DNA of 64,000 bases from an uncultured Candidatus Saccharibacteria bacterium (GCA_964585475.1 CAZPDF010000001.1:81337-145336), one strand, 5' to 3'; positions 12,402-40,610 are shown, numbered from the stretch's first letter. Notes: generated by a model from the sequence alone, not told the origin. A program made the numbers and translations.

Positions 12402-13414
12402 CGGGATCTAATGCTTCAAAAATCATTTGTCCCATCTGCGGCCGGACAAGCGATATCCAAGAAAGCAGATTTGAGAATTTTCTCGTCTGCTTATTGTGTG
12501 GCGGACATTTTGCAAAAAAGACCGAAGCGCCCGCTTATCTCGAGGATTATTTTGAGGAAGAAGGCACATCCTTTATCCCCCCACCAAAAGACCACGGGTA
12601 CAGGCCCGTGGATGAATGGAATAGTAACCTGAAGGGTAAGGAAGGACACCATGGGCGTAAGCCCATGGTGGGGGGATTTATATACCTGGCAGCAAGACCC
12701 CTCGCTCGGCTTTTTCTCTGGATGCGGCTAAGAAAAATCTTTCGTCTGCCCAAAACCATCCGGATTTTGGATTATGGGGCCGGGGATGGTAAGTTAGTTG
12801 CCTATCTTCGCTCCCACGGGCTTGACGCTGTCGGCTTTGATCCGAGCCCGGCCGCAGTCAAAGTTGCTCGTAATCACGGACGGCCGGTGTACTCGCGGAT
12901 TGATGGCCCTCTTTTTGACTTAATGATGTTCTGGCATAGTTTGGAGCATGCGGAATGGCCACTCGAGGTTATTGCGGGCGCCCGAGAGCATTTGGGGACA
13001 GGAGGCCGGCTTTTGATTGCAGTGCCTAATGCCGCCAGTTGGGAGGCCAGGTTTTTTGGGTCTCTATGGTTCCATTATGATTACCCCTTTCATGTGGTCC
13101 AATTTACACCGGTCTCCCTCTCGTATATGCTGGAAAAAAACGGTTTTAAAATTACTTCATGGGATTTTTTTAGTCCGGAGTATACGTTATCAGGTCTAGT
13201 ACAGTCGTTCCTGAACCTTTTTTTCCCTAAAAACTTTCTTTATAGTTTATTTAGTCAACGCCGATTTGGAATTTCTCGAGCGTATGCGCGCCTGTATCTT
13301 GTTCCAGCCCTGCCTTTAATCGTAATTTTCTTGCCGTTTCTGGTGTTGTTTTTCTTTTTAGAACTGGTATGTAGGAGAAGTGGGGCCATGATTGTGATGG
13401 CGGAGCGCCAATAA
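12398..13414 (+). CDS. Class I SAM-dependent methyltransferase with N-terminal Zn-ribbon
   Basis: 'CPICG...CLLCGG'. Motif I 'ILDYGAGDGKL'. 'MMFWHSLEH'. Contains a family-E repeat in frame. Confidence 0.6.
   Translation: MTGSNASKIICPICGRTSDIQESRFENFLVCLLCGGHFAKKTEAPAYLEDYFEEEGTSFIPPPKDHGYRPVDEWNSNLKGKEGHHGRKPMVGGFIYLAARPLARLFLWMRLRKIFRLPKTIRILDYGAGDGKLVAYLRSHGLDAVGFDPSPAAVKVARNHGRPVYSRIDGPLFDLMMFWHSLEHAEWPLEVIAGAREHLGTGGRLLIAVPNAASWEARFFGSLWFHYDYPFHVVQFTPVSLSYMLEKNGFKITSWDFFSPEYTLSGLVQSFLNLFFPKNFLYSLFSQRRFGISRAYARLYLVPALPLIVIFLPFLVLFFFLELVCRRSGAMIVMAERQ
12575..12678. repeat. Family-E palindromic element (ATCCCCCCACCA...TGGTGGGGGGAT) in frame in the methyltransferase gene
   Basis: 12-bp perfect terminal inverted repeats. 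Encodes FIPPPKDHGYRPVDEWNSNLKGKEGHHGRKPMVGGFIY. Confidence 0.65.
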
Positions 13415-13427
13415 GAGGCTTCTAGGT

Positions 13428-14678
13428 ATGGATCCCGTTATACCTAACATGAAAGTGAATACAAATTGCCGCATGTGTAAAGGCAAATCTTTACGCATGT
13501 TTTTGGATCTCGGAAAAACGCCTCTGGCCAATGCCTTTTTGCGAGAGAAGGATCTTAACTCTCCGGAACAAACTTATCCTTTGCGGGTATTTTTTTGCGA
13601 GTCCTGCCATTTAAGCCAACTGGTTGATGTGGTTTCTCCGGAAGTTTTATTCCGGGATTATGTCTATTTCTCTTCCGGGGTTGCGAACGTGCCGGAGCAC
13701 TTCCGAAGATATGCGGAAAATGTCGTGGAGAGGTTTCTCCCCGGGCGTTCCGGATTCGTGGTTGAGATTGGCAGCAATGACGGGGTCCTGCTGGGCGTTA
13801 TTAAGAATTTGGGCATTAACGTATTAGGGGTGGATCCGGCGGAAAATATTGCCGTGGTTGCAAATTCCCGGGGAATTCCTACCCTTCCTGAATTTTTTAG
13901 CGTCCGTCTTGCCGACTCGATCGCCAGAGAACACGGCAAGGCAGATGCCATAATCGCCAATAATGTTTTTGCGCATATTGACGATCATTATGATCTTATC
14001 CGCGGAGTAAGAGCGCTTCTCAAACCCAAAGGCGCATTTATTTTTGAAGCGCCTTATATCGTTGATATGTTTGAGAACTTGGCCTTTGACACCATTTATC
14101 ACGAACATCTCTCATTTCTCTCGGTCAAGCCCCTCGTACAACTTTTTAATCAGTTTGGAATGGAAGTTTTTGACGTAGAGATTCATCCCGTTCATGGTAA
14201 TTCCATTCGAATCTTTGCGGGACATAAAGGAGCGCATCCCGTATCTTCCCGCGTTCATGATTTTCTTGAGAAAGAGCAAAGCATGGGACTTAGTTCTTTC
14301 TCCACGTATGAAGGGCTGGCCTCAGCTGTTTCTGCCCTTAAAGAAAAGCTTTTGTCGCTTTTGCAGGAACTTCATAGAGATGGGAAAAAAATTGCTGCCT
14401 ACGGCGCTCCAGCTAGAGGCAATACCATATTGAATTATTTAGGGGTTAATCGGGAATTGATATCTTTCGCAACCGAAGAACTGCCTTCCAAGATTGGTTT
14501 CTATACTCCCGGAACTCGCTTGCCGATTATTCCTATAGCAGAAGCCAGAAAGAATCCGCCGGATTATTTTCTGCTTCTGGCCTGGAGTTATAAAGACATG
14601 GTGCTTAAAAAGGAGCAGGCGTTCCGTGAACAAGGCGGCAAGTTTATTCTTCCGGTAGGAGATGTTAGCATTGTTTAA
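13428..14678 (+). CDS. Sugar C-methyltransferase (TylCIII/NovU-like: Zn-ribbon + Methyltransf_13/14-type)
   Basis: N-terminal 'CRMCKGKSL...FCESCHLSQL'. Class I methyltransferase core. C-terminal C-methyltransferase-like domain. Adjacent to rfbB. Confidence 0.55.
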   Translation: MDPVIPNMKVNTNCRMCKGKSLRMFLDLGKTPLANAFLREKDLNSPEQTYPLRVFFCESCHLSQLVDVVSPEVLFRDYVYFSSGVANVPEHFRRYAENVVERFLPGRSGFVVEIGSNDGVLLGVIKNLGINVLGVDPAENIAVVANSRGIPTLPEFFSVRLADSIAREHGKADAIIANNVFAHIDDHYDLIRGVRALLKPKGAFIFEAPYIVDMFENLAFDTIYHEHLSFLSVKPLVQLFNQFGMEVFDVEIHPVHGNSIRIFAGHKGAHPVSSRVHDFLEKEQSMGLSSFSTYEGLASAVSALKEKLLSLLQELHRDGKKIAAYGAPARGNTILNYLGVNRELISFATEELPSKIGFYTPGTRLPIIPIAEARKNPPDYFLLLAWSYKDMVLKKEQAFREQGGKFILPVGDVSIV

Positions 14679-14699
14679 TTACTTTGGGTTACGAAATAC

Positions 14700-14816
14700 A
14701 ACAATCAGCGTATGATTGGCGTGCCTATCGGCGTAAAATCAGCGTTGGCGCCGATAAAACGCCGAATTGTACGCTGAAGATGACGCTGATATACGGCATT
14801 TCGTAATTGAGGGTTA
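14700..14816 (+). promoter_or_regulatory. Leader/operator region upstream of rfbB: TCAGCG/CGCTGA dyads plus a conserved 30-nt 5' leader
   Basis: ATCAGCG x2 then CGCTGA(T) x2. The terminal 'CATTTCGTAATTGAGGGTTAACTATGGC' is near-identical to the rfbD leader. Confidence 0.45.
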
Positions 14817-14819
14817 ACT

Positions 14820-15872: not shown

Positions 15873-15894
15873 TCTACCTTTGATTATGAAATTA

Positions 15895-15999
15895 AATTTC
15901 AGCGTACCGTTCAGCGAAATATCAGCGGGGAGCCGCTGAAAAGACGCTGATTTAATACGCTGATCTGACGCGGATAACCCATTTCGTAATTGAAGGTAA
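15895..15999 (+). promoter_or_regulatory. Leader/operator region upstream of rfbD: 3x TCAGCG followed by 3x CGCTGA (large imperfect palindrome) plus the conserved leader
   Basis: 'TTCAGCGTACCGTTCAGCGAAATATCAGCGGGGAGCCGCTGAAAAGACGCTGATTTAATACGCTGAT'. 'CATTTCGTAATTGAAGGTAATCCATGGC'. Confidence 0.45.
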
Positions 16000-16002
16000 T
16001 CC

Positions 16003-22098: not shown

Positions 22099-24648
22099 AT
22101 GCAGACATTTAGTTATTTACTTTTATCTTGGGTTAAACGATGTTGGCCCCTTCTTTTATTGGGCTTGGTGGTTTTTGCGTCTTTCGCGCCCCTCTTTTTT
22201 GGATACATGTTTTCCGATGATGAACAGATTGGGTTTTACTACCCGCAAAGTTTTTTCTATCAAAAATCTCTGCAGGAGGGCGCATCTACCCTCTGGAATA
22301 ATGCCTACTACGGCGGCGTATCCGTCAGTTTGGACCAATTCGTCAGCTCCTATTACCCCCTGCACCAGATTCTTTTCAGGATTTTTAACTTTTTTACCGC
22401 GCACCATTTAAGTATCTTGATTGCGGTGGTTCTCGGCTGTTTTTTTGCCTATTGGTTCGGGAGAGCGAATGGATTCGCGCGATCCTCTTCTTTCGTTCTT
22501 GCGGTATCGTACTTTACGGCGACAACTTTTGACTGGCTCTCCATCGGAACCCTGGCCGCGCACGCATTTATAGTCCTGCCCGCCATGCTTCTCTCGCTAC
22601 TTCGGGTGCATCAGGGGAAAAATTCTTTCGCGTTTGCGATTCTTGGGGGCGCCGCGCTTGGCGTCGGGTTTCTGGCCGGTTTCATGCAGATTATTTTCTA
22701 TATTTGCGCGGCTGTTTTTTTCTACGCCCTGTTTTTGGATTGGCAGAGAAGAAAAGAGCCAACCCTCCAAGGAGTTTCCCGTCTGGGTAAATTTTGCGGG
22801 CGTTTCCGCGTCACCCTTGTCTTAGCCGCCATGGTTCTGGTAGCCCTCCTCATCGGCGGGCGCCAAATTCTGCCTTCGATATTTTTTATTGATCTCACTA
22901 TTCGTTCCTCAACTTATGCTTTGCAGCGCCACGATTTGCCGAGTATCTCGCAAATTTTCACGGTTATCTTCCCGCCTCATGTGCGGATACCTTTTTTGGA
23001 TACTGGCTTGACCGGGGTCTACATCGGGACTTTGCCGCTTCTTGCGACAATATTAGGGATTATTTTTTCGAGGACCATATTTTCGAGGTTTTTCTTGTGT
23101 CTCTACCTGATTTTCTTGGGTCTTGCTTTTCACGCTCCGGTTATTTCTTTATTCAATGACTATATACCGCCTTATTCTCATATGGGGCATCAGGCACGCT
23201 GGCTTCTGCCGGGAGCTCTCTTTTTGGGGTTTCTTGCCGCTCAAGGATTTGAAGGGCTGATTTCCGGGAAAATTGTCTTTAAGCAGGCGCGGTCCATTTT
23301 AAAAGTTTTTGGGTGGGCCGTGCTCTTTATTTTTGCGTTCGTCGTAGCTGCCAATATTTTTTTTCAGATGTTGGATGCGCGGCCCGATACCCAACAGAAA
23401 ATTATTGAATGGCATTTTGGGGAAAGAACTAAAATATATTCTAACGAGCATTATTTAAATGTACTGGGTCTTGCTATAAAAAACGGGGCAGCGGCCATAT
23501 CTTTGCTGAATTGGAGATTTACACTTCCGCTTTTCTTGATTCCTCTTTCTTATTTTCTTATCCGGTACTTTTTGGAAAATAAAATCTCTTTGAAAATATT
23601 CCAGTTTCTTTCGATCGCCATGATTTCCTTAAGCGCATTTATCTCATATGCGGGGAATTTTTATAAATTTGTTCCTCAGGGCGTGGTGGTAAGGGAGCCG
23701 CAGGTCGTCCAGGAAATCAAAAAGCGGGAGCAAAACCCATCTGAGTTTCGGATTATAGGATTTTTGATTGCGGACTCGCTTTTTTGGAAGTTATCAAGTA
23801 AAACTTCGTTAAGCCCGGCGGAATTGGCCCCGATCCTAAAGGAGGTTCTGGCCGGCAACAGCAACGTCTTCTACGGCCTTGAGAGAATTGACGGTTTTGA
23901 GCCTTATCGTACACTCCGTCACAACGGCCTTTTGGATACGGTGCTTCTTCCCGGGCGTCCCCAGATTTTGGATACCAACTCTGTCGCTTTTCGCGAGGGC
24001 ACTTTTGGCAAGTTTCTTAATAAGGATGTCTGGAAAAATGCGACGCTGGAGGAGAAAATCGGCGATTTCACGTCGCGTATCCCTTTGCTCTCCATGCTCA
24101 ATGTAAAGTATATTTACTCTTTGGTTCCTTTGGCGGATCCGCGTCTCGAAGAGATCGGATTGTCGTCCAATGCCTATGTTCCGGTTCCGCTGTATTTATA
24201 CCGAAATAAAGAAGTTATGCAGCGAATTTATTTTTCTCGAGACGTCCGATTTTTTTCCGGGAGGGATTCTGATCTCCTGCGGGAGATTGAAAAAACCAAA
24301 GATTTCAGAGCTAAGACCTGGATCGAGTGTCCCGACTGCATTTTGGCTGGTGCCGCAACCCCAGGCGATTCTGTGGTGATAGAGCATTACGAAAGCGGGC
24401 GGGTTTTGGTGCGCGCGAGGACCGAAAAAGGTCAGTGGCTTGTTTTTAGCGAATCTGCCATGCCCGGTTGGATTGCAGAAATTGACGGGGCCGATACTCC
24501 CATCTATAATGCTAATTATATTTGGCAATCGGTGTATGTCCCGCCGGGGGAGCACAGAATAGAATTTAAATATTATGACATTACTATCCTCAAATGGAAG
24601 GAACTGCAGGAGAAAATAAAAGAAAAAATTTCAACCCCTTTAAATTAA
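22099..24648 (+). CDS. YfhO-like large polytopic membrane protein (glycan/teichoic-acid glycosylation GT-C-like)
   Basis: About 850 aa. More than 12 TM segments. C-terminal soluble domain ending '...MPGWIAEIDGADTPIYNANYIWQSVYVPPGEHRIEFKY', typical of YfhO. Confidence 0.5.
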   Translation: MQTFSYLLLSWVKRCWPLLLLGLVVFASFAPLFFGYMFSDDEQIGFYYPQSFFYQKSLQEGASTLWNNAYYGGVSVSLDQFVSSYYPLHQILFRIFNFFTAHHLSILIAVVLGCFFAYWFGRANGFARSSSFVLAVSYFTATTFDWLSIGTLAAHAFIVLPAMLLSLLRVHQGKNSFAFAILGGAALGVGFLAGFMQIIFYICAAVFFYALFLDWQRRKEPTLQGVSRLGKFCGRFRVTLVLAAMVLVALLIGGRQILPSIFFIDLTIRSSTYALQRHDLPSISQIFTVIFPPHVRIPFLDTGLTGVYIGTLPLLATILGIIFSRTIFSRFFLCLYLIFLGLAFHAPVISLFNDYIPPYSHMGHQARWLLPGALFLGFLAAQGFEGLISGKIVFKQARSILKVFGWAVLFIFAFVVAANIFFQMLDARPDTQQKIIEWHFGERTKIYSNEHYLNVLGLAIKNGAAAISLLNWRFTLPLFLIPLSYFLIRYFLENKISLKIFQFLSIAMISLSAFISYAGNFYKFVPQGVVVREPQVVQEIKKREQNPSEFRIIGFLIADSLFWKLSSKTSLSPAELAPILKEVLAGNSNVFYGLERIDGFEPYRTLRHNGLLDTVLLPGRPQILDTNSVAFREGTFGKFLNKDVWKNATLEEKIGDFTSRIPLLSMLNVKYIYSLVPLADPRLEEIGLSSNAYVPVPLYLYRNKEVMQRIYFSRDVRFFSGRDSDLLREIEKTKDFRAKTWIECPDCILAGAATPGDSVVIEHYESGRVLVRARTEKGQWLVFSESAMPGWIAEIDGADTPIYNANYIWQSVYVPPGEHRIEFKYYDITILKWKELQEKIKEKISTPLN

Positions 24649-25499
24649 AGGAGACGCTGGCTTGTCCTATTTGTCGGGGCGCGCTTAATCAAAAGGGCGA
24701 GGAGATGATTTGTGTGGACGCACAGCACGGCCCATTTTTGATTGACGGGGCGCATAGACTCCACTTGATGGCTGGTGGCGACGAGGATAAGTATTCAAAA
24801 GCGCATCAGGGGGGGATTAATTGGCTGAAGTCGTTTCTCAAGCAATATCCCAAGCTATATTATTTTACCTGGAACTTATTTTGTCCGGTGCTTTTGAGTG
24901 GAAAGGGGCCGCGTGCAGTACTGGCACTCCTTACCGGTCATGCGCCCATAATATTGAATCTCGGCTCGGGCCCCAGGCGCTTGGGAGAGGAATTTATTAA
25001 TATTGATGTATTTCCTTTTCCGGAGGTGGATATAGTTGCCGATGCCGCGCATCTTCCGTTTGTAGATAATTCGGTTGACGCGGTTGTCAGCGAATCCCTG
25101 CTGGAGCATGTCCCGGATCCTCACGCTGTGGTGCGCGAGATGACAAGGGTTCTGAAGCCGGGCGGTATTCTTTATACGAATACTCCGTTTCTTACGCCCT
25201 ATCACGCATCCCCCGATGATTTCAGCCGTTGGACGCAAAGCGGACTGCGTTCTCTTTTCTCCGAATTCGCCGTAATTGAGGAAGGGGTAAGCGCCGGCCC
25301 TTGGAGCGCGTTACTCGTATTTCTTGCTTATTGGCTGGGAGTTCTTTTCTCTTTTGGCTCGCGCCGGCTTGCCCCTGTTTTGGGAGTACTTTTTATGATT
25401 CCGCTCGGCCCGTTAAAATTTCTTGATTTTCTTTTTGCCCGTATTCCCGGAAGCGAAGCGGTGGCGGCGCAACTTTATTTTATCGGTAAAAAAAAATAA
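24594..25499 (+). CDS. Trm112-like Zn-ribbon fused to a class I SAM methyltransferase with a C-terminal membrane segment. The start is uncertain and overlaps the upstream gene by 55 nt.
   Basis: 'LACPICRGAL'. Motif I 'ILNLGSGPRRLG'. 'LLEHVPDP'. 'LKPGGIL'. Hydrophobic C-terminus. Confidence 0.5.
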   Translation: MEGTAGENKRKNFNPFKLKETLACPICRGALNQKGEEMICVDAQHGPFLIDGAHRLHLMAGGDEDKYSKAHQGGINWLKSFLKQYPKLYYFTWNLFCPVLLSGKGPRAVLALLTGHAPIILNLGSGPRRLGEEFINIDVFPFPEVDIVADAAHLPFVDNSVDAVVSESLLEHVPDPHAVVREMTRVLKPGGILYTNTPFLTPYHASPDDFSRWTQSGLRSLFSEFAVIEEGVSAGPWSALLVFLAYWLGVLFSFGSRRLAPVLGVLFMIPLGPLKFLDFLFARIPGSEAVAAQLYFIGKKK

Positions 25500-25502: not shown

Positions 25503-25575
25503 ATGCTTTTGTCAGTCGTCATCCCGGCATATAACGAGTGGAAAACCATTCGTGCGATTGGAGCTAGTGACCCCG
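25503..25575 (+). pseudogene. Orphan 5' fragment of a GT2 glycosyltransferase gene (MLLSVVIPAYNEWKTIRAIG...) truncated by a palindromic element
   Basis: Near-identical to the N-terminus of the intact GT2 at 26299 ([19 protein letters not shown]). The frame runs into repeat 25571..25764. Confidence 0.5.
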
Positions 25576-25764
25576 TTAGAAATCCAGCCATGGCTATATT
25601 ATTAAGAAGGTAGAAAGGCGAAGCCCCGTTTGAAAGCTCGCATTGCAAGCATCTCGAAGTAAAAAATTGCCTGCGGTTTGACAAACAACTTTCTGACGAG
25701 GCGAAGCCGACTTACGTCTATCCGCTTCTTTAAACGAAGTACCTTTTTAAGATTTCTAACTGGG
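25571..25764. repeat. Family-B palindromic element (CCCCGTTAGAAATC...GATTTCTAACTGGG), 194 bp
   Basis: 14-bp terminal inverted repeats. Lies between the GT2 fragment and the TA cassette. Confidence 0.55.
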
Positions 25765-27148: not shown

Positions 27149-28774
27149 TTACACCTCGCGGCAAAGTAGCGCCGAAGAAATCTTGCGCCAAGAGCGTAGG
27201 GTATTCCCAAAGAGCGGGGTAAAACCGTAACTGGCGAGGATAAATATGAAGGCGTTTACGGGGTAGCGGAAGCGGCCCTGGTCGCTGAAGCCGGCCACCG
27301 TACTCGTCAGAGCATAAGTGAAGATTATGGCGCTCATGATAAGCGCTATTTTTCTTTCCTGCCCGCCGCGTTTTATGGCGTAAGCCGCGCCCAAGACCCA
27401 TAAGACATTAAAAACGATCCATAGAGCCCGTCCGGCAACTGGAATGGGGGCGAACCATCCGATTCGTTCCCAGACAAGTTTTGCGAGTTTCATCGGCCCT
27501 TCCTGAAATAGGGTCACCGATGGGGAAAAATCAATCTGGAAACGGGGTACTGCGTGAAAATGTTGTAGATAAGTGAGATAGAGGTCTTGGGCAAAGAAAG
27601 TGGACATGCTGATTAAGACGACCTGTGCAGTCTCTTTTGGATAAGTAATGATGGTTTGCAGGCCCTCTTTTGCAAGCGCGGTGCCTATGCTCGGATTTTC
27701 TCCTATATCGCGGATTTCCAGGCCATGTCTTGCGGAAAAATCGCGGTTAAGCTCATTTTTTACTTCTCCGATGGGTCTTCCGGTGTTGAGAGAAAGAATT
27801 GAAGATCCGATGGAGGAGTAGACATTGCGGAGGCCGGTGGTGGCGATATTGAGGGTATTGAATTGATAGTAATTGCGGATGAGCCAGGGAGAAAGCACGA
27901 CGAAGAAAGCAAGGGTAAAAGCCAGCAATATGCGACTTCCTCGGTATTTTGCTTCTCCGGCACGCTCATCCGCTCCAGCGGCGGATTCGCTAAGGGTCGG
28001 TCGAGCCGCCCCGCCTTCGGCGGGTACCGAGCCGGCTCTACCTCCCATTACCGGCGAAGCAAAATACCTCGGCAGTATTTTAGATCGCCGCCACCTTAGG
28101 AGAAGGATGGAGAGAAGAAAGAAGAAGCCGAGTATAAAAAGAAATTGCGCGTGAGGGCGCGTTAGGGTGGAGAGCGCGAGGAAGATTCCGGCGAGAGCCG
28201 CATAGCGCATTCCCCAATCATCAACCCCGTTAGAAGTCTGTTCCGCCGAAGGCGGAACAGCAGATGCCTGTGGCATCTGACTTCTAACGGGGTCAAGGGT
28301 TTTTAAAAAAAAGTATGTCGCAAGAAGTAGAAAAAAAACCGCAACCGTTTCGGTAAGAACAAGAATGCTCCATACAGCACCCATCGGCTCAAACGCCATG
28401 AGTCCTGCGGCCAAAAGCGGTACCCCCCCCGACTTAGCAAGAAATTTAGCGATCGCGTATACCAGAATCGGCATAAGCGAAGAAAGAATTATTTGTAGTA
28501 TAAGTAGGGGCAGCATTGATCCGGAAAGTTTGAGGGAGCCCGCCATGAGCAAGGGAAAGATCGGAGGAAAATGGGCGCTTGGCTGGAAAGGTAGCGCTTC
28601 GCTTCCACTGAATCCGTTTCCGGCGACGATGTTCTTTGCCGTTAGAAGAAATCCGTAGGAATCGGATGTAAAAGTTTTTTCTTCGCCAAGCGTGTGGATA
28701 ATAGTAAAAAGCAGTGCAGCCCTTAAGACAAAAGTTGCGACAACGATAATGAGAAGTGTTCGCGGCAAATTCAT
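27149..28774 (-). CDS. GT39/ArnT-like integral-membrane glycosyltransferase with an in-frame family-B repeat and a C8/G8 homopolymer
   Basis: Multi-TM. 'LTAKNIVAGNGFSGS' ArnT/PMT-like N-region. Convergent with the GT2 at 26299. Confidence 0.5.
   Translation of the reverse strand: MNLPRTLLIIVVATFVLRAALLFTIIHTLGEEKTFTSDSYGFLLTAKNIVAGNGFSGSEALPFQPSAHFPPIFPLLMAGSLKLSGSMLPLLILQIILSSLMPILVYAIAKFLAKSGGVPLLAAGLMAFEPMGAVWSILVLTETVAVFFLLLATYFFLKTLDPVRSQMPQASAVPPSAEQTSNGVDDWGMRYAALAGIFLALSTLTRPHAQFLFILGFFFLLSILLLRWRRSKILPRYFASPVMGGRAGSVPAEGGAARPTLSESAAGADERAGEAKYRGSRILLAFTLAFFVVLSPWLIRNYYQFNTLNIATTGLRNVYSSIGSSILSLNTGRPIGEVKNELNRDFSARHGLEIRDIGENPSIGTALAKEGLQTIITYPKETAQVVLISMSTFFAQDLYLTYLQHFHAVPRFQIDFSPSVTLFQEGPMKLAKLVWERIGWFAPIPVAGRALWIVFNVLWVLGAAYAIKRGGQERKIALIMSAIIFTYALTSTVAGFSDQGRFRYPVNAFIFILASYGFTPLFGNTLRSWRKISSALLCREV
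28225..28292. repeat. Family-B palindromic element in frame in the GT39-like gene
   Basis: CCCCGTTAGAAGTC...GACTTCTAACGGGG. Encodes DPVRSQMPQASAVPPSAEQTSNGVDD on the minus strand. Confidence 0.7.
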
Positions 28775-29647: not shown

Positions 29648-30433
29648 ATGACTTTAGACTTTTATAGAAAAATTAGACATGTTCCAGCCGGTATTCTTGC
29701 AAAATTCTTTGAAAGACAGGCGGAAATGACGCTCCGAAAAAATCGTCCTTTGTGGGGTTTACTGCAGGATTATCTTAAAAATTCGCCCTCAACCGGATGC
29801 GCCTATTCTGATTATCTTCTTCTCTATAATTACATCAGAAACAGAAAGCCCAAGGAAGTTCTTGAGTGCGGTACGGGGGTTTCCACAGTTGTTATTGCGT
29901 ATGCGCTGAAAGAGAACGAACGGGATTATGGGATTAAGGGCAGGGTTACTTCAATGGAAGAATCGCCTAATTATTACAATGTAGCGCTAAAGCTGTTTCC
30001 AGAGAGAGAGAGCCTTAAAAGCTATGCAGAGATAGTATTGAGTCCGGTGATGGAAGATACTTATCATTTCTTTCGCGGCATACGTTATAAAGATGTTCCT
30101 TTGCGGCCATATGATTTTGTATTTGTGGATGGCCCTGATTATTTGTGCGATCCAAAAGGCGAGATAATTTTATTCAATTTTGATTTTGTGGATATAGTTA
30201 GAAAATCAGAAAAACCCGTAGGGGCCCTGATAGATACCAGAACCACCACCTGTTTTGTGTACTCACTGCTTTTTGGAGATGAGTTTAGATATGACTATGT
30301 GCGAAAAGTGGGAATCGTGGAGCCGGTTACGAAAAACGATCTCGCGCCGGTCCAAAAAATTGTCGCAAGGTCAATGAGGGCGCATTCATTCAAAAGGCCG
30401 CCTTTCCTGAATTTCATACGAGGAACTTATTGA
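29648..30433 (+). CDS. Class I SAM methyltransferase (Methyltransf_24/CmcI-like)
   Basis: 'VLECGTGVSTVVIAYAL'. 'DFVFVDGPD'. Confidence 0.45.
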   Translation: MTLDFYRKIRHVPAGILAKFFERQAEMTLRKNRPLWGLLQDYLKNSPSTGCAYSDYLLLYNYIRNRKPKEVLECGTGVSTVVIAYALKENERDYGIKGRVTSMEESPNYYNVALKLFPERESLKSYAEIVLSPVMEDTYHFFRGIRYKDVPLRPYDFVFVDGPDYLCDPKGEIILFNFDFVDIVRKSEKPVGALIDTRTTTCFVYSLLFGDEFRYDYVRKVGIVEPVTKNDLAPVQKIVARSMRAHSFKRPPFLNFIRGTY

Positions 30434-31905
30434 ATACAGGTATGAAAACAATTTTTATTACTATTGATGATCCGGCGGCACTAAAGAACATTTTCGGCAC
30501 CAAAGCATGGCCCGAGGTTTTGCGATCTTCCGCGGATGCCAAACTCGTGCTTTTGACGAGGCCTAGCAAAAAGGAAGCACACGAGAAGTTCTTTGTTGCG
30601 CCGAACATCGTGGTTGAAGCGCTTGATCCTGCGTTTGATTCTCTTATGTCGGGCGTAATTGCGTCTCTGGCCCGCAGCGGGATTAGAACCCATACCAATC
30701 TTTGGTCTAAAATGCGCTCTTACGAACGGGGTGATTCTGGGTTTTTGGTGACAATGTTCAAGCGGGCATATACTTTTCTTTTGGGCGGATCGTCTCTCAA
30801 TAAGAGGTTTTTGCGTCGTATCTTTCTGGGGCTTGCGCCGGCCAAAGCGACGGCCGCACTCTTTGAAAAATATCAGCCCTCGCTTCTTTTTGCGACCTCG
30901 CTCACCAACATTGATTTTGACGTGCCTATCGCGGTTGAGGCGAAAAGGCGCGGCATACGGATCGTCGGCATGGTGCGAAGCTGGGATAATTTTTCGAGCC
31001 ACGGGCTCACTCGTGTAATCCCGGATCGGTTGATCTTGCAAAATAAGTTTTTAAAAGATATGGCCGAGCGGCACCAGGCTATCACCGAAAAAGACGTGCC
31101 GATCGATATCGTTGGTTTGCCGCACTATGACATGTATGTCGGTTTTGAAAAAATGCTTGAAAGCAGAGAATCATTTTTCCAAAGGATGGGGCTCGACCCT
31201 TCAAAAAAACTGATTCTTTACGGGGCAATGGGGGATTTTCTTTTTCCGAATGAGGGGGGAATGGCCGACGTGCTTGAGGAACTGATTGACCCCGTTAGAA
31301 GTCAGACGCCAAAGGCATCTGCTTATTCCCAAGGGAATCAGACTTCTAACGGGGTTGAATCGCGGGCTATTCAAGAGCCAGCCCAAGTTCTTTTCCGCGC
31401 CCACCCAAAATTCAATAGTCCCCTTGAAAGGATGAAAGGAATGAAACATGTTAAGCCGGACAAAGACGTGTCCAATAGTACGGGCGATTTCATGAAGCAT
31501 CTTATAAATTCCATTTACCATAGTGATATTGTTGTTGCTGGCGCATCTACGATCGTGATTGATTCTATAATGTTGGCAAAACCCGTGATTTGCGTTGGTT
31601 TCGATGGCCTTGAAAAAAAGGTTCCCTATTGGACTTCGGTAAAGCGTTTTTATGACTGCTACACGCATTTTGAAGCGTTAATGGAAACAGGCAATATACC
31701 GCTTGCGAATACCAAAGCAGAATTGGCGCGTTTAATAGATGAGGCCCTCCGGCAGAAATCCTACGACCAAGAGCCGCGCCAAAAAGTGATTGATCTTTTC
31801 GTGGCGCCATTTGATGGACATTCAAGCGAGCGGCTCGCCCAAATCTTAGTCAAAGAATTTACTAGTATACGAGATGGACAGCGGATTCAACCAAAAATTC
31901 ATTGA
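30430..31905 (+). CDS. GT-B-fold polysaccharide biosynthesis protein (CDP-glycerol glycerophosphotransferase TagB/F-like or capsule-synthesis KpsS-like) with an in-frame family-B repeat
   Basis: Two Rossmann-like halves. 'FRAHPKF...IVVAGASTIVIDSIMLAKPVICV'. The family assignment is uncertain. Confidence 0.35.
   Translation: MNTGMKTIFITIDDPAALKNIFGTKAWPEVLRSSADAKLVLLTRPSKKEAHEKFFVAPNIVVEALDPAFDSLMSGVIASLARSGIRTHTNLWSKMRSYERGDSGFLVTMFKRAYTFLLGGSSLNKRFLRRIFLGLAPAKATAALFEKYQPSLLFATSLTNIDFDVPIAVEAKRRGIRIVGMVRSWDNFSSHGLTRVIPDRLILQNKFLKDMAERHQAITEKDVPIDIVGLPHYDMYVGFEKMLESRESFFQRMGLDPSKKLILYGAMGDFLFPNEGGMADVLEELIDPVRSQTPKASAYSQGNQTSNGVESRAIQEPAQVLFRAHPKFNSPLERMKGMKHVKPDKDVSNSTGDFMKHLINSIYHSDIVVAGASTIVIDSIMLAKPVICVGFDGLEKKVPYWTSVKRFYDCYTHFEALMETGNIPLANTKAELARLIDEALRQKSYDQEPRQKVIDLFVAPFDGHSSERLAQILVKEFTSIRDGQRIQPKIH
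31290..31354. repeat. Family-B palindromic element in frame in the TagF-like gene
   Basis: CCCCGTTAGAAGTCAG...GACTTCTAACGGGG. Encodes DPVRSQTPKASAYSQGNQTSNGVE. Confidence 0.7.
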
Positions 31906-33643: not shown

Positions 33644-33645
33644 TC

Positions 33646-35017: not shown

Positions 35018-36109
35018 ATGCATATAAAAGAAAAGCTTAAAAGGATTCTTAACGGCTTGCCCTCAAGAGTTAAGATCGGAAAGCGCTTTGTCGGGCCGCA
35101 CGAGCCCATATTTGTGATTGCGGAAGTTGGCATAAACCATAATGGCGATGTTGCCACCGCAAAAAAACTTATTGACGCGGCTAAAGAAGCTGGCGCCGAT
35201 GCGGTTAAGTTCCAGAAGCGGACCACCGAGGAAATTCTTACTAAAGAGGGTCTGGAAAAACCGTATACTTCTCCGCATGCGTTTGCTCCGACTTACGGAG
35301 AGCATAGAAAGAAGCTGGAATTTTCGGAAGATCAGTATCAGGAACTGACAGCTTACGCAGAGTCGCGTAGCATCCAGTTTTTTGCAAGCGTGTGGGACCA
35401 GAAAAGCGCGGATTTTATGGGTGCGCTCAATGTGGATGCATATAAAATTCCGTCCGCGGATGTAATCAATACGCCGCTGCTTGAGTACGTCGCAAAAAAG
35501 CAAAGGCCGGTTCTTCTTTCGACCGGCATGTCCACTTTTGATGAGATTGAGGAAGCGGTGGACGCGGTCCTAAAACATAACGAGCGCCTGATTATTTTCC
35601 ATTGCCTTTCGCTTTATCCTTCGCCGGAGGATAAAATAAATCTTGATTTCATGGACGTGCTTCGCGAAAGATTTAAACCTCTGCCCGTGGGTTACTCTGG
35701 GCATGAGACGGATCTTTTACCCACGATTGCCGCTGTCTCTCGCGGCGCATGTATTGTCGAGAGGCATCTTACTCTTGATAAAAAAATGAAGGGATCGGAC
35801 CATGCGGCATCCCTTGAGCCGCAGGAGCTGAAGGAACTTGTTACCTCTGTAAGGCGGATTGAGAAAATCCGGGGGATGCCGGAGAAGATAATGTATAGCG
35901 AACTGATTCCGCTTCGCGAGAAACTTGCTAAAAGCGTTGTGGCAAAAACCCTGATCCCGGCGGGGATGGTCATAACTTACGAGATGCTTGCTGTAAAAGG
36001 CCCCGGGAGCGGCATTAAGCCGAGTTTGATGCAAAATCTCGTCGGGCGAGCGGCAAAACGCGATATCGCCGCGGATACGCATCTTCCGCAGGATGCCCTC
36101 AATTGGTGA
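35018..36109 (+). CDS. neuB: N-acetylneuraminate (nonulosonic acid) synthase, NeuB/PseI/LegI family with SAF domain
   Basis: 'FVIAEVGINHNGDVATAKKLIDAAKEAGADAVKFQ'. C-terminal SAF 'AKTLIPAGMVITYEMLAVKGPGSGIKP'. Confidence 0.8.
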   Translation: MHIKEKLKRILNGLPSRVKIGKRFVGPHEPIFVIAEVGINHNGDVATAKKLIDAAKEAGADAVKFQKRTTEEILTKEGLEKPYTSPHAFAPTYGEHRKKLEFSEDQYQELTAYAESRSIQFFASVWDQKSADFMGALNVDAYKIPSADVINTPLLEYVAKKQRPVLLSTGMSTFDEIEEAVDAVLKHNERLIIFHCLSLYPSPEDKINLDFMDVLRERFKPLPVGYSGHETDLLPTIAAVSRGACIVERHLTLDKKMKGSDHAASLEPQELKELVTSVRRIEKIRGMPEKIMYSELIPLREKLAKSVVAKTLIPAGMVITYEMLAVKGPGSGIKPSLMQNLVGRAAKRDIAADTHLPQDALNW

Positions 36110-36120: not shown

Positions 36121-36290
36121 GACGAAATTTAATAAAAGGGGGCGATGCCCCTTTTGTGATTCGTCTATTTTGACTTGTCCCATTAGAAACGGAGTTTCTA
36201 ATGGGATTGCCAGCGATGCCCCACGCTTTCTTCAAGACGTTTGGTGACGTGTGCGGCGGCTTGATCGCTACCGCCAAATTGTTTGATTTT
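36121..36290. repeat. Left copy of a roughly 100-bp direct duplication (terminator hairpin + 3' end of the radical-SAM gene) flanking the DUF5678/protease cassette
   Basis: Matches 37255..37420 at about 85% (AAAAGGGGC-ATCGCCCCTTTTGTGATTC...ATTGCCAGCG.TG.CCCACGCTTTCTTC.AGACGTTT..TGACGTGT). Carries the frame of pseudo-ORF 36198..36440(-), which ends '...HVTKRLEESVGHRWQSH' versus the intact '...HVRKRLEESTGHRWQSK'. Confidence 0.55.
36124..36145 (+). terminator. Rho-independent terminator hairpin after neuB
   Basis: GGGGGC-GAT-GCCCC followed by TTTT. Confidence 0.55.
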
Positions 36291-36311
36291 GTTTCTTAGT
36301 TCTGGTAATAT
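36283..36311 (+). promoter_or_regulatory. Sigma70-like promoter (TTGATT-17-TAATAT) for the DUF5678-like gene
   Basis: Located 7 nt upstream of the ATG at 36318. Confidence 0.4.
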
Positions 36312-36317
36312 CATAAT

Positions 36318-36907: not shown

Positions 36908-36923
36908 GAATAACCTGAATACC

Positions 36924-37136
36924 ATGAGAGATAAAACAACTCTTCAGCTTGTTAAACAGTTTAAAATTGATATTCAGAAAGGATTTGGAAAAAGGGTTTG
37001 TAAAGAGCTTCACCTTGAATGTGCAAATTGTAAAGCACAGGTTTTGATAGGGCATCTAAACTGGTATATTGATCTTCTGGACTGGAGCATTACTCAAGAG
37101 AAAAAGAAGAGGCAGCCCCAAAAGAAGAGAAGTTAA
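36924..37136 (+). CDS. Hypothetical small basic protein (70 aa) in the cassette
   Basis: ORF with ATG at 36924. Lys-rich C-terminus. No recognised motif. Confidence 0.25.
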   Translation: MRDKTTLQLVKQFKIDIQKGFGKRVCKELHLECANCKAQVLIGHLNWYIDLLDWSITQEKKKRQPQKKRS

Positions 37137-37257
37137 ATAGGTCCCTCTACCAAGGTCTTTCATTATGGACATGGGATGGGCACCTGAAATCTCTTGCTTT
37201 CTTGGCTTTTTACTAACTGATACCCAGGAGACCAACTTCTCGGCTATTGGAGAATTT

Positions 37258-37282
37258 AAAAAAGGGGCATCGCCCCTTTTGT
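37258..37282. terminator. Bidirectional terminator hairpin (GGGGC-ATC-GCCCC flanked by A/T runs)
   Basis: AAAAAAGGGGCATCGCCCCTTTT sits between the cassette and the 3' end of the minus-strand radical-SAM gene. Confidence 0.55.
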
Positions 37283-37297
37283 GATTCTTAATGGAAT

Positions 37298-38842
37298 TTA
37301 TTTGGATTGCCAGCGGTGACCCGTGCTTTCTTCCAGACGTTTCCTGACGTGTTCCGGTGGATTAACCGTCTCCCAAAACCAGTCGCGGATTTCCACAATC
37401 ATTTCTTTCGGCACGGTGGTATTTATCATAACTCCGTTTTTCCAGTTCATGATATCGGGGTCGAAATCAGACGGTAAATGTTTTCCTTTACAATCTGGGC
37501 AATCGAGCGCCATGTCATGTAGCTGACTTCCGGGAAAAGGAATGGGTATGAAAGGTGTGACGTACGCTGCACCCGCATCAATCAGTTTTCGTGCGAGTTC
37601 AACCGACATCATAATTTCCTTGAAGCTTTCATGTGGGAATCCGATCATCATATTGACCGGGCAGATGATGCCGATTTCTTTGGCGATGCGGGTGAGTTTC
37701 AACACGTCATGCTTCTCGAGCGTGAGTTTAGCGGTCGCGTATTTATCAAGAATCCTCTGTGATCCGGATTCTACCGGAAAGACAATCTGTCGAAACTTAG
37801 AATCATAGAAAAGCTGCAAATACTCGCGGTCCGGCTCAAGCGTTCCCGCTTTGGTCTTCTGGAATATGTGGACTAGATTCACGCCATTTACATCCGCAAT
37901 AGTAAAGTCAAAATCTCGCACCAGGGTGAAGATTTCTTTAGTCCGTGGTTTCTTGGCAAGCAAACTGTCGTCTTCGACAAGGACCATTTTTACGCCTAGT
38001 CTGCGAAGTTCTTCGAATTCAGCGATTACTCGGGAAACTGATTTCAAGCGAAGTTCGCCAATATCACCCGAAAGCTCACCCCTGCCGAAACGCTCTTTTG
38101 AAATGTGGCAGTAGGTGCATTGGAAAGGGCATCCGCGCGAGGTCATTATAGGCGCATAGCGGTATTGATTCCCTGTGAGGTTCACGCCGTGCGGGGAGGC
38201 AATGCGTTCGTACTTATCAAAAGGAAGTTTGTCCCAGGCAGGCATCGGCAAATCATCAAGGTTGGTGTAGGTGGTATCCGGTTTGGCCCGCGAGATTAGC
38301 GGTTTACCCGCGCGGAAATAAATGGTTCCGTCGATGTTCTCATAGGATGACCCTTGCATGAAGCGCCTGGCGATTTCTTGCATCGGTTTCTCGCCTTCGG
38401 TAGTGCAGACAAGATCGAAAGACCCGTTCTTCATGAAGCGCGGCCAGAGATTTCTCGCGTTTACTCCGCCGGTCACGACCAAAGTTTCCGGATTCACGCG
38501 CTTGGCGATCTCCGCCACCCTGAATGCCATATTGGTCTGCGGCGTGAAATTGGAGTTGATGCCCACGATATCGTAATTTTTCTTCGCCAGAAATTCTTCA
38601 ATTCGTTCCCACGACATTCCGATTCTCGTAAGACCATTTGGCTGCATAACCGAATTGTAGAATGTATTCTCAAGCGTATCCTCGGGCGTACCAACCGTTG
38701 CGTCCACTATATCCGAGTCAATTCCTATTTGGCGCAAGGCCCCGGCAAGATAGAGCGGCCCGAGCGAGCCGTCAGGGCGAGGCGTCTCAATAGGCATTAA
38801 CTGATTTGGAGGGTAGATGAAAAGAACCTTCGGCTCGCGCAT
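37298..38842 (-). CDS. B12-binding radical SAM enzyme (class B radical-SAM methyltransferase-like)
   Basis: N-terminal B12-binding 'NYDIVGINSNFTPQ...LVVTGGV'. CxxxCxxC 'SRGCPFQCTYCH'. Confidence 0.75.
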   Translation of the reverse strand: MREPKVLFIYPPNQLMPIETPRPDGSLGPLYLAGALRQIGIDSDIVDATVGTPEDTLENTFYNSVMQPNGLTRIGMSWERIEEFLAKKNYDIVGINSNFTPQTNMAFRVAEIAKRVNPETLVVTGGVNARNLWPRFMKNGSFDLVCTTEGEKPMQEIARRFMQGSSYENIDGTIYFRAGKPLISRAKPDTTYTNLDDLPMPAWDKLPFDKYERIASPHGVNLTGNQYRYAPIMTSRGCPFQCTYCHISKERFGRGELSGDIGELRLKSVSRVIAEFEELRRLGVKMVLVEDDSLLAKKPRTKEIFTLVRDFDFTIADVNGVNLVHIFQKTKAGTLEPDREYLQLFYDSKFRQIVFPVESGSQRILDKYATAKLTLEKHDVLKLTRIAKEIGIICPVNMMIGFPHESFKEIMMSVELARKLIDAGAAYVTPFIPIPFPGSQLHDMALDCPDCKGKHLPSDFDPDIMNWKNGVMINTTVPKEMIVEIRDWFWETVNPPEHVRKRLEESTGHRWQSK

Positions 38843-38997
38843 GTGTCACCTCCTATCAAGTCAAGGTACTTGGCAAAAATGTACTATAAATAGAACGTTT
38901 TGTAAAGAAATTAAGTTGCCAAAAATTTTTATGCCCAGTAATACGACTTTCAGCGGTTATTTGTAATTTTCATTCCATTTGTGGTAGTATTGGAGAG

Positions 38998-39216
38998 ATG
39001 AATACCATAACAATTCCTAAAAAAATAGCATCCCGAGATGATCTTATAGTTATTCCACGCAGGGAGTACGAGGCGCTTTTGGAATCGAGAAAGTTTAAAG
39101 AGTTTTCGCCAACTGGGGTACAAAAAAAAGCATTGGCAAGGGCAGAACAGAATTTTCGTAAAGGAAAAACCCTCTCGTATTATGGACTTGTCAAAAAGTT
39201 GGGGTTTGCAGATTGA
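38998..39216 (+). CDS. AbrB/MazE/SpoVT-type antitoxin
   Basis: 'TITIPKKIASRDDLIVIPRREYEALLE' swapped-hairpin-like. Precedes and overlaps the RelE-like gene. Confidence 0.45.
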   Translation: MNTITIPKKIASRDDLIVIPRREYEALLESRKFKEFSPTGVQKKALARAEQNFRKGKTLSYYGLVKKLGFAD

Positions 39217-39451
39217 CCCAGGTGTTTTTAAAACTTTCAAGCGGACACCTCGGCATGACGCCGAGGTTCTTCTTGAAGTAATGCGGCTTCTGCCAGTCAA
39301 TCCTTACTTCGGTGATATTCAGAAGATGAAAGGCGAAGATAACGCGTGGCGCCGCCGCATAGGTTCATATAGGATTTTCTATCGAATCAAAATCACCGAA
39401 AAAGTAATCCTGGTATTTCACCTCGAACGGAGAACTTCAAAAACGTATTGA
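39182..39451 (+). CDS. RelE/ParE-family type II toxin
   Basis: 'NAWRRRIGSYRIFYRIKITEKVILVFHLERRTSKTY' is a classic RelE C-terminus. The true start may be internal. Confidence 0.7.
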   Translation: MDLSKSWGLQIDPGVFKTFKRTPRHDAEVLLEVMRLLPVNPYFGDIQKMKGEDNAWRRRIGSYRIFYRIKITEKVILVFHLERRTSKTY

Positions 39452-39461
39452 GTGAGTTCCT

Positions 39462-40610
39462 ATGGGAAATAAAAAAGGACACATTTTGATTACCGGAGGG
39501 GCTGGGTTTATCGGCTTTTATCTTGCCGAATTATTTCGAGAATCCGGATTTTCAGTAAGAATCCTGGACGTTGCTTCGCGTCCTGATGGTTTAGCGAAAG
39601 ACATTGAATACTTCCAGGGTGATGTAACAAGCAAAGGATCATGGAGCCGCGCACTTCAGGGAATAAGCCACGTGTTCCATCTTGCGGCCTATGGCGATAA
39701 CCGTCCGGACTTTCACAAGTGTTTTACCGTAAATGCCGCGGCGTCCGCGCTTCTTTATGAAGTTATAAGAGATGAAAAGTTGCCGGTTAAGCAGATAATT
39801 GTCGCGTCTTCCCAGTCGGTGTACGGAGAAGGGAAATATCTTTGTAAAACTCACGGGGTATTTTATCCCGTCTCAAGAGTAAAGAAAGATTTAGAATCAG
39901 GACTGTGGGATATTCATTGTCCGGAAGACGGCTTGCTGGCAGAAGTTCTGCCGTCCGCAGAAGAAGATAAGCTCTGTCCAGTTTCCCCTTACGGCATATC
40001 GAAGATGGCGGTTGACCACATTGCGCTTACCCTGGGCAGGGAGTTAAACATTCCTTCTGTGGCCCTGCGTTATTCCATGGCAAGCGGAGCGTATCCTTCC
40101 ATGCGCGCAATTTATCCCAATGCCATTAAATATTTCACGGAGCAGGCATTGAAAAATGAATCGATTTCTCTGCATGAAGACGGAAATCAGTCGCGCGATT
40201 TTATAGATATCCGCGACCTTGGAAAAGCCCACCTTGCGGTTTTGGATAATCCGGCTGTATATTTTCAGGCCTTCAATATAGGAAGCGGCAAGTCAATTAA
40301 AATTCGCGATCTTGCAGAGATGGTGTATAAAATTGTCGGAGTCGAATTTACCCCCCCACCAGAAAGACGCACCCAGAAAGACGAAAGCGATTGGCAAAAA
40401 AAGGCGAAGCGTAGAATAGGGGTGCATAGGTATAAACTTATGGTGGGGGGGTTTAAGCCGGTTTTCCGAAATGAGTTCCGTCCCTTTACTCCGCGTCATA
40501 TGGTAATGTCTATTAAAAAAATTAAAGATGTCCTCGGCTGGCGCCCCGTACATACTTTGGAAGAAAGTATCACAGAATATATAACGGCGGTCAAAAATAA
40601 AAGCGCATAA
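39462..40610 (+). CDS. NAD-dependent nucleotide-sugar epimerase/dehydratase (extended SDR), with an in-frame family-E repeat
   Basis: 'ILITGGAGFIGFYL'. 'YGISKMAVDH' (YxxxK). Paralog of 44969..46090(-). Confidence 0.7.
   Translation: MGNKKGHILITGGAGFIGFYLAELFRESGFSVRILDVASRPDGLAKDIEYFQGDVTSKGSWSRALQGISHVFHLAAYGDNRPDFHKCFTVNAAASALLYEVIRDEKLPVKQIIVASSQSVYGEGKYLCKTHGVFYPVSRVKKDLESGLWDIHCPEDGLLAEVLPSAEEDKLCPVSPYGISKMAVDHIALTLGRELNIPSVALRYSMASGAYPSMRAIYPNAIKYFTEQALKNESISLHEDGNQSRDFIDIRDLGKAHLAVLDNPAVYFQAFNIGSGKSIKIRDLAEMVYKIVGVEFTPPPERRTQKDESDWQKKAKRRIGVHRYKLMVGGFKPVFRNEFRPFTPRHMVMSIKKIKDVLGWRPVHTLEESITEYITAVKNKSA
40350..40452. repeat. Family-E palindromic element (ACCCCCCCACCA...TGGTGGGGGGGT) in frame in the epimerase gene
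   Basis: 12-bp perfect terminal inverted repeats. Encodes FTPPPERRTQKDESDWQKKAKRRIGVHRYKLMVGGFKP, absent from the paralog at 44969. Confidence 0.65.

Follow-up and report, generated by a model that had tools for sequence, protein, structure and literature searches.

Within a 64,000-nucleotide stretch of DNA from an uncultured Candidatus Saccharibacteria bacterium (GCA_964585475.1 CAZPDF010000001.1:81337-145336), hereafter called the window, a short palindromic element lies in frame in the genes of two unrelated enzymes, a methyltransferase (copy E1) and a sugar epimerase (copy E2). We named it family E. It is probably a non-autonomous element of the MITE type (miniature inverted-repeat transposable element) that works like the Rickettsia palindromic elements (RPEs), in that it is translated with its host gene and tolerated in the product. 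The insertion status of both copies, their ends and flanks, the conservation of their hairpins, the existence of copies elsewhere and the intactness of the host folds in structural models are directly supported.

The window contains four perfect matches to the 10-mer CCCCCCACCA, where about 0.1 would be expected by chance (our own estimate, 128,000 positions x 4^-10). These matches are the four arms of two inverted pairs, located at 12577-12586 (+) and 12666-12675 (-) for E1 and at 40352-40361 (+) and 40441-40450 (-) for E2. The cores that they delimit, CCCCCCACCA...TGGTGGGGGG, extend over 12577-12675 and 40352-40450 and measure exactly 99 bp each. With one further base on either side, the ends become the perfect 12-bp terminal inverted repeats that an initial annotation of this DNA had described, ATCCCCCCACCA/TGGTGGGGGGAT in E1 and ACCCCCCCACCA/TGGTGGGGGGGT in E2. 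Both copies are on the plus strand and in identical codon phase. Aligned in gapless register, their interiors share 37 of 79 bases, compared with 22.9 in shuffled sequences (P = 4e-4), and are thus diverged but related. The tetranucleotide TTTA, absent from the initial annotation, directly borders both elements on both sides (Table 1). Because TTTA stands on either side of the 101-bp element, the net addition per insertion is 101 + 4 = 105 nt, corresponding to 35 codons. Of the five independent insertion sites that were found for family E, here and in other genomes, four have the flanks TTTA(T/C)-core-(A/G)TTTA; the remaining one reads TTAT-C-core-TTAT. Orthologues carry a single TTY codon at the position where the filled sites have the flanking TTTA repeat.

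Comparison with homologues supported the proposal that the 35-residue segments are insertions in both enzymes rather than ancestral loops. For the epimerase, a search of 5.8 billion proteins yielded orthologues of 342 to 371 amino acids with 56 to 68% BLAST identity. Aligning the epimerase with its in-window paralogue and with database homologues delimited the insert to 35 residues; 0 of 17 and then 0 of 117 homologues had residues in these columns. The larger alignment includes P0002, an orthologue that is 74 to 75% identical, and the paralogue itself (P0080), which lacks the segment as had been noted and provides an internal empty-site control. P0002 has GAA TTC AGA CCA as its DNA sequence at the empty site, and the window minus 105 nt reconstructs GAA TTT AAG CCG. 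For the methyltransferase, an exhaustive HMMER search was performed over 1.84 billion representatives, and the segment was missing from all 11 of the closest relatives (30 to 46% identity, 280 to 324 amino acids) in the alignment. Conservation of the segment in distant orthologues, which would have spoken for an ancestral loop, was therefore not seen in either enzyme. The predicted insert-free junctions would read GAATTTAAGCC and TCCTTTATATAC. Logan contigs of run SRR8863434 match both filled sites without a difference over 250 bp, which shows that the inserts are not a quirk of one assembly.

In the methyltransferase, E1 provides residues 60 to 94. The S-adenosylmethionine (SAM) motif is intact, and the invariant columns comprise C11, C14, C31 and C34 as well as D125, G127, G129 and G131. 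The AlphaFold2 model has a mean predicted local distance difference test (pLDDT) score of 84, with values below 50 for residues 55 to 91, between a confident zinc ribbon and a confident Rossmann domain. In the epimerase, E2 provides residues 297 to 331, and G12/G15/G18 (GxxGxxG), S117, Y177 and K181 (YxxxK) are conserved. Here, the mean pLDDT is 92.7, and the insert blocks (297-331) score 54 to 81 and form one short helix plus a disordered stretch. The best Foldseek matches of this model are UDP-sugar 4-epimerases, with target-normalized template modeling scores mostly between 0.82 and 0.90; the nearest named homologues of the epimerase come from Sungbacteria and Parcubacteria. According to the models, both enzyme folds would be kept, with the inserts appearing as low-confidence excursions, a loop in the epimerase and an inter-domain linker in the methyltransferase.

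The inserts read F-IPPPKDHGYRPVDEWNSNLKGKEGHHGRKPMVGG-F in E1 (F-IPPP...MVGG-F) and F-TPPPERRTQKDESDWQKKAKRRIGVHRYKLMVGG-F in E2 (F-TPPP...MVGG-F). Open reading frames (ORFs), Pfam matches and translations all agree with the initial description of an element that encodes PPP...MVGGF in frame in two unrelated enzymes. The peptides are very hydrophilic, with a grand average of hydropathy of -1.7 and 10 to 14 charged residues. Their common pattern, PPPE..K....W...AKR....H..K..VGG, is still visible in the diverged E2, and the peptides resemble each other because their DNA does. The insert would be translated along with the host gene and tolerated, and enzyme activity is presumably retained in both hosts. 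Both enzymes are most likely intact genes that carry a tolerated 35-residue hitch-hiker, and neither pseudogenes nor misassemblies.

The predicted single-strand architecture comprises a closing stem, formed by the terminal repeats, and two subterminal hairpins. Hairpin HP1 (CCACGGGY...GCCCGTGG) is located 15 nt from the left end, and hairpin HP2 (CCAYGGRC-NNNN-GYCCRTGG) is located at the right repeat, 7 nt from the right end. E2 has kept HP2, as CATAGGT-ATAA-ACTTATG at 40425-40442, and its HP1 has eroded. The predicted RNA folds of E1 and E2 reach -53.5 kcal/mol (z = -5.35) and -43.3 kcal/mol (z = -5.71), respectively. Copies in general fold at -43 to -60 kcal/mol with z between -5.3 and -6.5, the exception being one Sungbacteria copy at -35 kcal/mol (z = -2.5). 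In a six-row alignment, 91.5% of the cells of the whole structure are paired, versus 43 to 49% with slid partners. For HP2 alone, 94% of the cells are paired and four of the nine pairs have changed on both sides, and the outermost pair of the element co-varies as T-A or C-G. Owing to the small number of sequences, these compensatory changes are supportive but inconclusive.

Other kinds of intervening sequence were considered as well. Rfam 15, group I and group II introns included, gave no gathering-score match in the window and only chance-level matches at the two sites (E >= 0.2), and a tRNA scan gave nothing at either site. The intron reading was rejected on the anatomy of the element and the homologue alignments. 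Inteins begin with Cys or Ser, end with His-Asn followed by Cys, Ser or Thr, and adopt a Hint fold that takes some 130 residues or more. An intein or mini-intein was rejected, as the segment has 35 residues, begins with I/T-P-P-P and ends with V-G-G-F followed by I or K.

Relatives of family E were found in other genomes. When one genome per species was scanned for the two arms 65 to 95 nt apart, at least 118 loci were returned, and most of the matches listed belong to other families. Two true relatives with 99-bp cores occur in Candidatus Sungbacteria RIFCSPLOWO2_01_FULL_47_10 (locus L015), at 1059-1157 and 3024-3122 and in opposite orientations. The genes next to them are ftsB-like, miaA and thrS; both copies fall outside conserved genes. 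A metagenome scan with CCCCCCACCA-N20-28-GATGAATGG yielded 42 loci; nine were real relatives that re-sampled three Sungbacteria-like sites, the third of which is represented by L128/L136/L142, and the others were chance matches. E1 and the Sungbacteria copies have 58 to 61% interior identity (46 of 79 bases in gapless register; blastn E = 3.7e-5 without the shared 10-mer ends). Since family E occurs at unrelated sites, two of which were checked and lie outside conserved genes, it is a DNA element and not a protein module. Two assemblies of one Sungbacteria copy (L015 3115-3125 versus L140 4615-4625) disagree by a single base in the poly-G arm, with 7 G counted in one and 6 G in the other; this reflects either homopolymer length heterogeneity or a sequencing error at this arm.

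An nhmmer profile of family E detected no further copy in the window, in all fetched loci or in the approximately 10 kb past the right window end (L162). A near-match to the arm, TGGCGGGGGG at 49358, has no partner arm. A search for other host proteins with a padded 44-residue profile of the insert peptide gave one word-sharing candidate and no match. Beyond the copies initially described, the searches added three sites in Sungbacteria-like DNA and none in about 74 kb of this genome.

Weak nhmmer matches led to a relative in an Omnitrophota metagenome-assembled genome (MAG; locus L118). This element combines the same interior as family E, CAGAAAGCCGCGG...CCGCGGATGAATGG, with ends that differ from those of family E, CCCCGTTACACC/GGTGTAACGGGG, and that resemble the ends of the CCCCGTTAGAAGTC family, which is abundant in the window. 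Bordered by TTTA left and right, it occupies an in-frame position within a pilin-like ORF, 3524-4042 (-), which reads ...SEAF(TPLHPESRGLQAADEWLCNGTRPLGRGVTGF)TLVEIMIT.... The insert comprises 31 residues and stands immediately before the FTLVEIMI motif. It places Gly right before Phe (..GVTG-FTLVE..), and the uninterrupted reading would be ..SEA-FTLVE...

The window as a whole is one large glycan-biosynthesis island that encodes glycosyltransferases, methyltransferases, short-chain dehydrogenase/reductase (SDR) enzymes, NeuB and PMT-like proteins, and palindromic elements are abundant in it. Members of the CCCCGTTAGAAGTC...GACTTCTAACGGGG family are flanked by perfect 4-bp duplications of differing sequence (TCAA, TTGA, TGAA and TGAG). 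One of its sites, 48647-48825, is a nested triple insertion, in which a CCCCGTTAGAAGTC element encloses a CTCAGCCCGTCCGAAAACT-type element that in turn encloses one of the GTCATCCTGAG type. The variable duplications and the nesting directly attest, for this genome, to transposition in which the cuts are staggered by 4 bp. Elements of this family and of the GTCATTCTGAGCG...CGTTCAGAATGA family also occur in frame, in genes for PMT-like glycosyltransferases and a glycerophosphotransferase-like protein, where they presumably represent insertions. Among the fetched loci, the end motifs of these two families were found only in genomes of the candidate phyla radiation and in the contig of the window itself (L083, L108, L072, L115 and L162). 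Together with the Sungbacteria and Parcubacteria origin of the nearest named epimerase homologues, this suggests a Patescibacteria host.

Taken together, we propose the following mechanism. Family E would be a 101-bp MITE with 11- to 12-bp G/C-rich terminal inverted repeats and two subterminal hairpins, which inserts at TTTA, leaves TTTA on both sides and thereby adds 105 nt, or 35 codons. The length of 105 nt is divisible by three, so the reading frame downstream is preserved upon every insertion. In the phase TTT/A and the present orientation, the element has no stop codon and would encode a very hydrophilic peptide bracketed by Pro and Gly, PPP...VGG. The two insertions may have fallen in permissive spots, a surface loop of the epimerase and the linker that joins the zinc ribbon of the methyltransferase to its Rossmann domain. 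Both would then have been retained, with the element transcribed and translated along with the host gene. Transposition itself would depend on a transposase acting in trans and cutting with a 4-bp stagger.

Several of the properties by which MITEs are recognized are present in family E: small size (101 bp, with a longest reading of 33 to 35 codons of host-frame peptide), terminal inverted repeats (12 bp and perfect in both copies) and dispersed copies with filled and empty sites (two in the window, three in Sungbacteria-like DNA and the L118 relative). Bacterial MITEs such as Correia/CREE, ERIC, Nezha and Coxiella QMITE1/2 (PMC10969869, PMC5896051) are similarly small, with terminal inverted repeats and short flanking direct repeats; further shared features are the lack of transposase coding capacity, a strong predicted hairpin and occasional in-frame intragenic copies. 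In contrast to these, family E has a fixed rather than a variable flank (TTTA) and no matching autonomous insertion sequence in the window or the fetched loci. In addition, the usual MITE pattern is one of conserved ends and a free interior, whereas the interior of family E (HP1 plus GATGAATGG) is shared with the differently ended L118 element.

The closest parallel in behavior is offered by RPEs. As far as they are covered in the summary given by PMC10969869, RPEs are palindromes of about 100 to 150 bp that occur in frame in unrelated housekeeping and metabolic genes and also outside genes; they are translated as extra peptide segments that were judged compatible with the protein fold (Ogata et al. 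2000, 2002, as summarized in PMC10969869). Family E resembles them in size, in its in-frame position in unrelated genes, in copies outside genes and, according to the models, in a peptide that the fold tolerates. It differs in its host phylum (probably Patescibacteria, with a relative in Omnitrophota), in its own G/C-rich 12-bp repeat and TTTA flanks, and in its number, five sites as opposed to dozens of RPEs per genome. Family E is thus likened to RPEs by behavior and not by sequence; it works like them and is not classed as a member.

Several observations weigh against the reading of family E as a transposed MITE. Pfam searches of about 50 ORFs of the window revealed no transposase domain. 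A search for an autonomous partner, using pairs of the G/C-rich end clamp 200 to 4,000 bp apart in about 1 Mb of fetched loci, found only adjacent small elements. The flanking repeat is nearly always TTTA, and for that reason a true duplication is inseparable from an element-borne TTTA placed beside a TTTA target. Family E amounts to two copies in about 74 kb of this genome and five sites in total; with so few copies, mobility is deduced from anatomy and not from presence/absence polymorphism within a population. Run SRR8863434 may also underlie the deposited genome, so the second assembly is not proven independent at the read level. The idea that the element is adapted to coding was dropped: family E is free of stops in four of six frames, and shuffled sequences of the same composition reach this often (P = 0.07-0.38). 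As this number of open frames is not significant, plain purifying selection on the site and survival of copies suffices to explain two open in-gene copies.

The main mechanistic rival, which we regard as unlikely, is a single-strand derivative of the IS200/IS605 type that would be mobilized by a Y1 HuH transposase, as are palindrome-associated transposable elements (PATEs) or repetitive extragenic palindromic (REP) sequences. In this case, insertion would take place 3' of TTTA, the element itself would end in TTTA without a true target duplication, and the hairpins would be transposase sites. Family E shares with PATEs and with REP sequences and their REP-associated tyrosine transposases (RAYTs) the subterminal hairpins near both ends, which are both conserved, and an invariant tetranucleotide beside the insertion. 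Both window copies also have the same orientation, on the strand with almost all genes, and in the L118 relative the interior is more conserved than the ends. What speaks against such an origin is the perfect 11- to 12-bp terminal inverted repeat, which is not known to be a feature of IS200/IS605 ends, together with the apparent 4-bp duplication and the neighboring CCCCGTTAGAAGTC family, which has similar C-rich ends and the variable 4-bp duplications typical of DDE transposition. Moreover, no TnpA/TnpB-like ORF and no Y1 (TnpA/RAYT) gene was found in the window. It is very doubtful, as a combined proposal, that ultra-small uncultured bacteria (Patescibacteria, Omnitrophota and others) share a cross-phylum guild of "clamped hairpin" elements about 100 nt long, of which family E would be one visible tip. 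Such a guild would be built from a G/C-rich clamp, for example, CCCCCCACCA/TGGTGGGGGG, which also stands around bona fide tRNA genes, and from interchangeable interiors. It would be moved by a TTTA-directed mechanism without a classical insertion-sequence partner, or its in-gene copies would be neutralized after transcription, e.g., by ribosome hopping from one TTT codon to its duplicate.

It is highly improbable that the RNA or DNA structure of family E (closing stem plus two hairpins) or the hydrophilic peptide has been co-opted for a host function, such as control of mRNA stability or translational pausing or an interaction surface loop in the glycan-synthesis machinery. The strong folds with significant z-scores, the compensatory change in HP2, the peptide-level resemblance that persists in the diverged E2 and the location of both hosts in one glycan-biosynthesis island would fit co-option. 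However, recognition by a transposase predicts hairpin conservation equally well, and the peptide resemblance follows that of the DNA. Furthermore, the checked Sungbacteria copies lie outside conserved genes, the hosts are unrelated enzymes with inserts in low-confidence regions of the models, and no Rfam family matches. Translational bypass of the 105 nt, with take-off at the TTT before the hairpin and landing on the TTT after it, would produce the ancestral protein. As in the T4 gene 60 gap and the mitochondrial byps, identical codons (here in a TTT-A context at both inserts) precede and follow the insert, and a very stable stem begins one base past the first TTT. Unlike those elements, both inserts are open and exact multiples of three, neither of which bypassing requires, and no stop codon follows the take-off codon. 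Transposition explains the duplicated TTTA more simply, and related copies occur outside genes, which leaves bypass extremely improbable. Effectively refuted are the readings of the segment as a low-complexity loop, whether ancestral or convergent, and as an assembly artefact of the poly-C/poly-G tracts. Homopolymer runs are error-prone, and the L015 and L140 versions of one copy differ by a G. Still, 117 of 117 and 11 of 11 homologues are without the segment, and the same structured sequence recurs in two unrelated genes, has relatives in the DNA of other organisms and is identical in the second assembly. An artefact would not yield in-frame, 99-bp, hairpin-conserving copies. The transposed, RPE-like element therefore remains the reading that we prefer.

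The clamp CCCCCCACCA was also encountered in other sequence families. A superfamily defined by the shared 10-mer is unproven, for in viral contigs the real clamp gave 0 matches and composition-matched controls gave 1 and 11; the control matches indicate that other G/C-rich clamps form families too. In several Saccharibacteria- and Parcubacteria-type MAGs, real tRNA genes (Ala-GGC, Pro-CGG and Val, identified by ARAGORN) are enclosed by a perfect inverted repeat of 13 to 20 bp that begins with CCCCCCACCA, for example, CCCCCCACCAATT-(tRNA-Val)-AATTGGTGGGGGG. This repeat may be a pre-tRNA processing stem or the sign of a tRNA captured in an element. In large families of about 105 nt outside open frames, the clamp forms an inner part of a far longer stem, ..CGAATTNAA-CCCCCCACCACTTTT...AAAAGTGGTGGGGGG-TNAAATTCG.. 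Two near-identical copies of this kind with conserved flanking structure, at L060 4911-5015 and 5642-5743, bracket a ribosomal protein S7-like gene (read by eye). A further clamp-bearing group has a central GGAGACGAAGTCGGCTTCGCC-type hairpin; L040, L050 and L078 clustered together, and L036 and L041 were joined by eye. The MAG labels in this group are Caldithrix, Humimicrobiaceae, Saccharibacteria and Methylomirabilis, an unusually wide range for one small element.

Additional observations were made in and near the window. The methyltransferase ORF 24594-25499 (301 amino acids) matches Pfam only at residues 147 to 194, starting from about profile position 47; its first 146 or so residues may represent either a further insert or an extension of the N-terminus. 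A terminator-like hairpin, AAAAGGGGGCGATGCCCCTTTT, and its adjoining 54 nt recur about 1.1 kb apart with 83 to 86% identity, at 36134-36252 and 37259-37352. One copy is located just downstream of a NeuB-like ORF (35018-36109), and the other enters the 3' end of a radical-SAM ORF (37298-38842, minus strand). Just past the right window end, L162 1-4284 encodes a giant protein of at least 2,868 amino acids, which continues past the edge of the fetched locus.

Table 1. Coordinates of family E, its host genes and other palindromic or clamp-bearing features (window positions unless a locus is named)
Feature	Position	Strand	Basis or remarks
Host gene 1, SAM-dependent methyltransferase with N-terminal CxxC...CxxC zinc ribbon	12398..13414	+	Pfam Methyltransf_23, E = 1.4e-19
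Left TTTA flanking repeat of E1, putative target-site duplication	12572..12575	+	Sequence, flank table; TTT = codon F59
Element E1, 101 bp = T + 99-bp core CCCCCCACCA...TGGTGGGGGG + A	12576..12676	+	Sequence, fold, blastn
Hairpin HP1 of E1, subterminal, CCACGGGT-ACAG-GCCCGTGG	12592..12611	+	Fold, pair counts
Hairpin HP2 of E1, subterminal, ACCATGGGC-GTAA-GCCCATGGT	12648..12669	+	Fold; 3' arm overlaps right terminal repeat
Right TTTA flanking repeat of E1	12677..12680	+	Sequence; TTT = codon F94
Host gene 2, NAD-dependent sugar epimerase/dehydratase, extended SDR	39462..40610	+	Pfam Epimerase/GDP_Man_Dehyd; Epimerase E = 5.5e-37, split into two stretches
Left TTTA flanking repeat of E2	40347..40350	+	Sequence; TTT = codon F296; orthologues have a single F here
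Element E2, 101 bp = C + 99-bp core + G, diverged copy	40351..40451	+	Sequence, fold, interior identity
Right TTTA flanking repeat of E2	40452..40455	+	Sequence; TTT = codon F331
Paralogous epimerase without insert (P0080), internal empty-site control	44969..46090	-	Alignment
CCCCGTTAGAAGTC...GACTTCTAACGGGG family sites	28225-28292, 31290-31354, 48647-48825, 51710-51827; also 3451-3524, 25571-25764		
CCCCGTTAGAAGTC family in frame, ORF 27149-28774	28216-28297, 27935-28076	- (ORF)	Reads ..DPVRSQ..QTSNGV..
CCCCGTTAGAAGTC family in frame, ORF 30430-31905	31281-31359		Reads ..DPVRSQ..QTSNGV..
GTCATTCTGAGCG...CGTTCAGAATGA family in frame, ORF 10758-12401	11816-11918		Reads ..NVILSVAKNL..EILHFVQND..
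Clamp-bracketed tRNA genes	L006 4615-4725, L018 4871-4979, L066 3552-3654, L082 4143-4245, L119 2046-2157		
Long-stem clamp families	L003, L004, L013, L019-L021, L027, L060 and about 35 other Omnitrophota/Planctomycetia loci		
GGAGACGAAGTCGGCTTCGCC-type group	L040 2545-2654, L050 6004-6114, L078 58-166, L036 5262-5375, L041 1207-1320		

Neither the motif nor MITEs of the candidate phyla radiation turned up in a relevant way in the literature searched. In-frame selfish DNA within proteins is a textbook oddity of Rickettsia. Family E itself is new, and the kind of element is already known, in-frame MITE insertions having been established for RPEs, ERIC, QMITE and others (PMC10969869, PMC5896051). 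A Rickettsia-type phenomenon would now extend to the small genome of an uncultured organism, probably of the Patescibacteria type, where cell-surface glycan genes of a single 64-kb window contain in-frame members of three or more palindromic families, and a family-E relative occurs in another phylum, within a pilin-like gene. Should this hold generally, these organisms would gain lineage-specific protein loops from such elements, which would also be a recurrent cause of split domain matches and odd "insertions" in metagenome annotation. They could also serve as a starting point in the search for the transposases active in these lineages.

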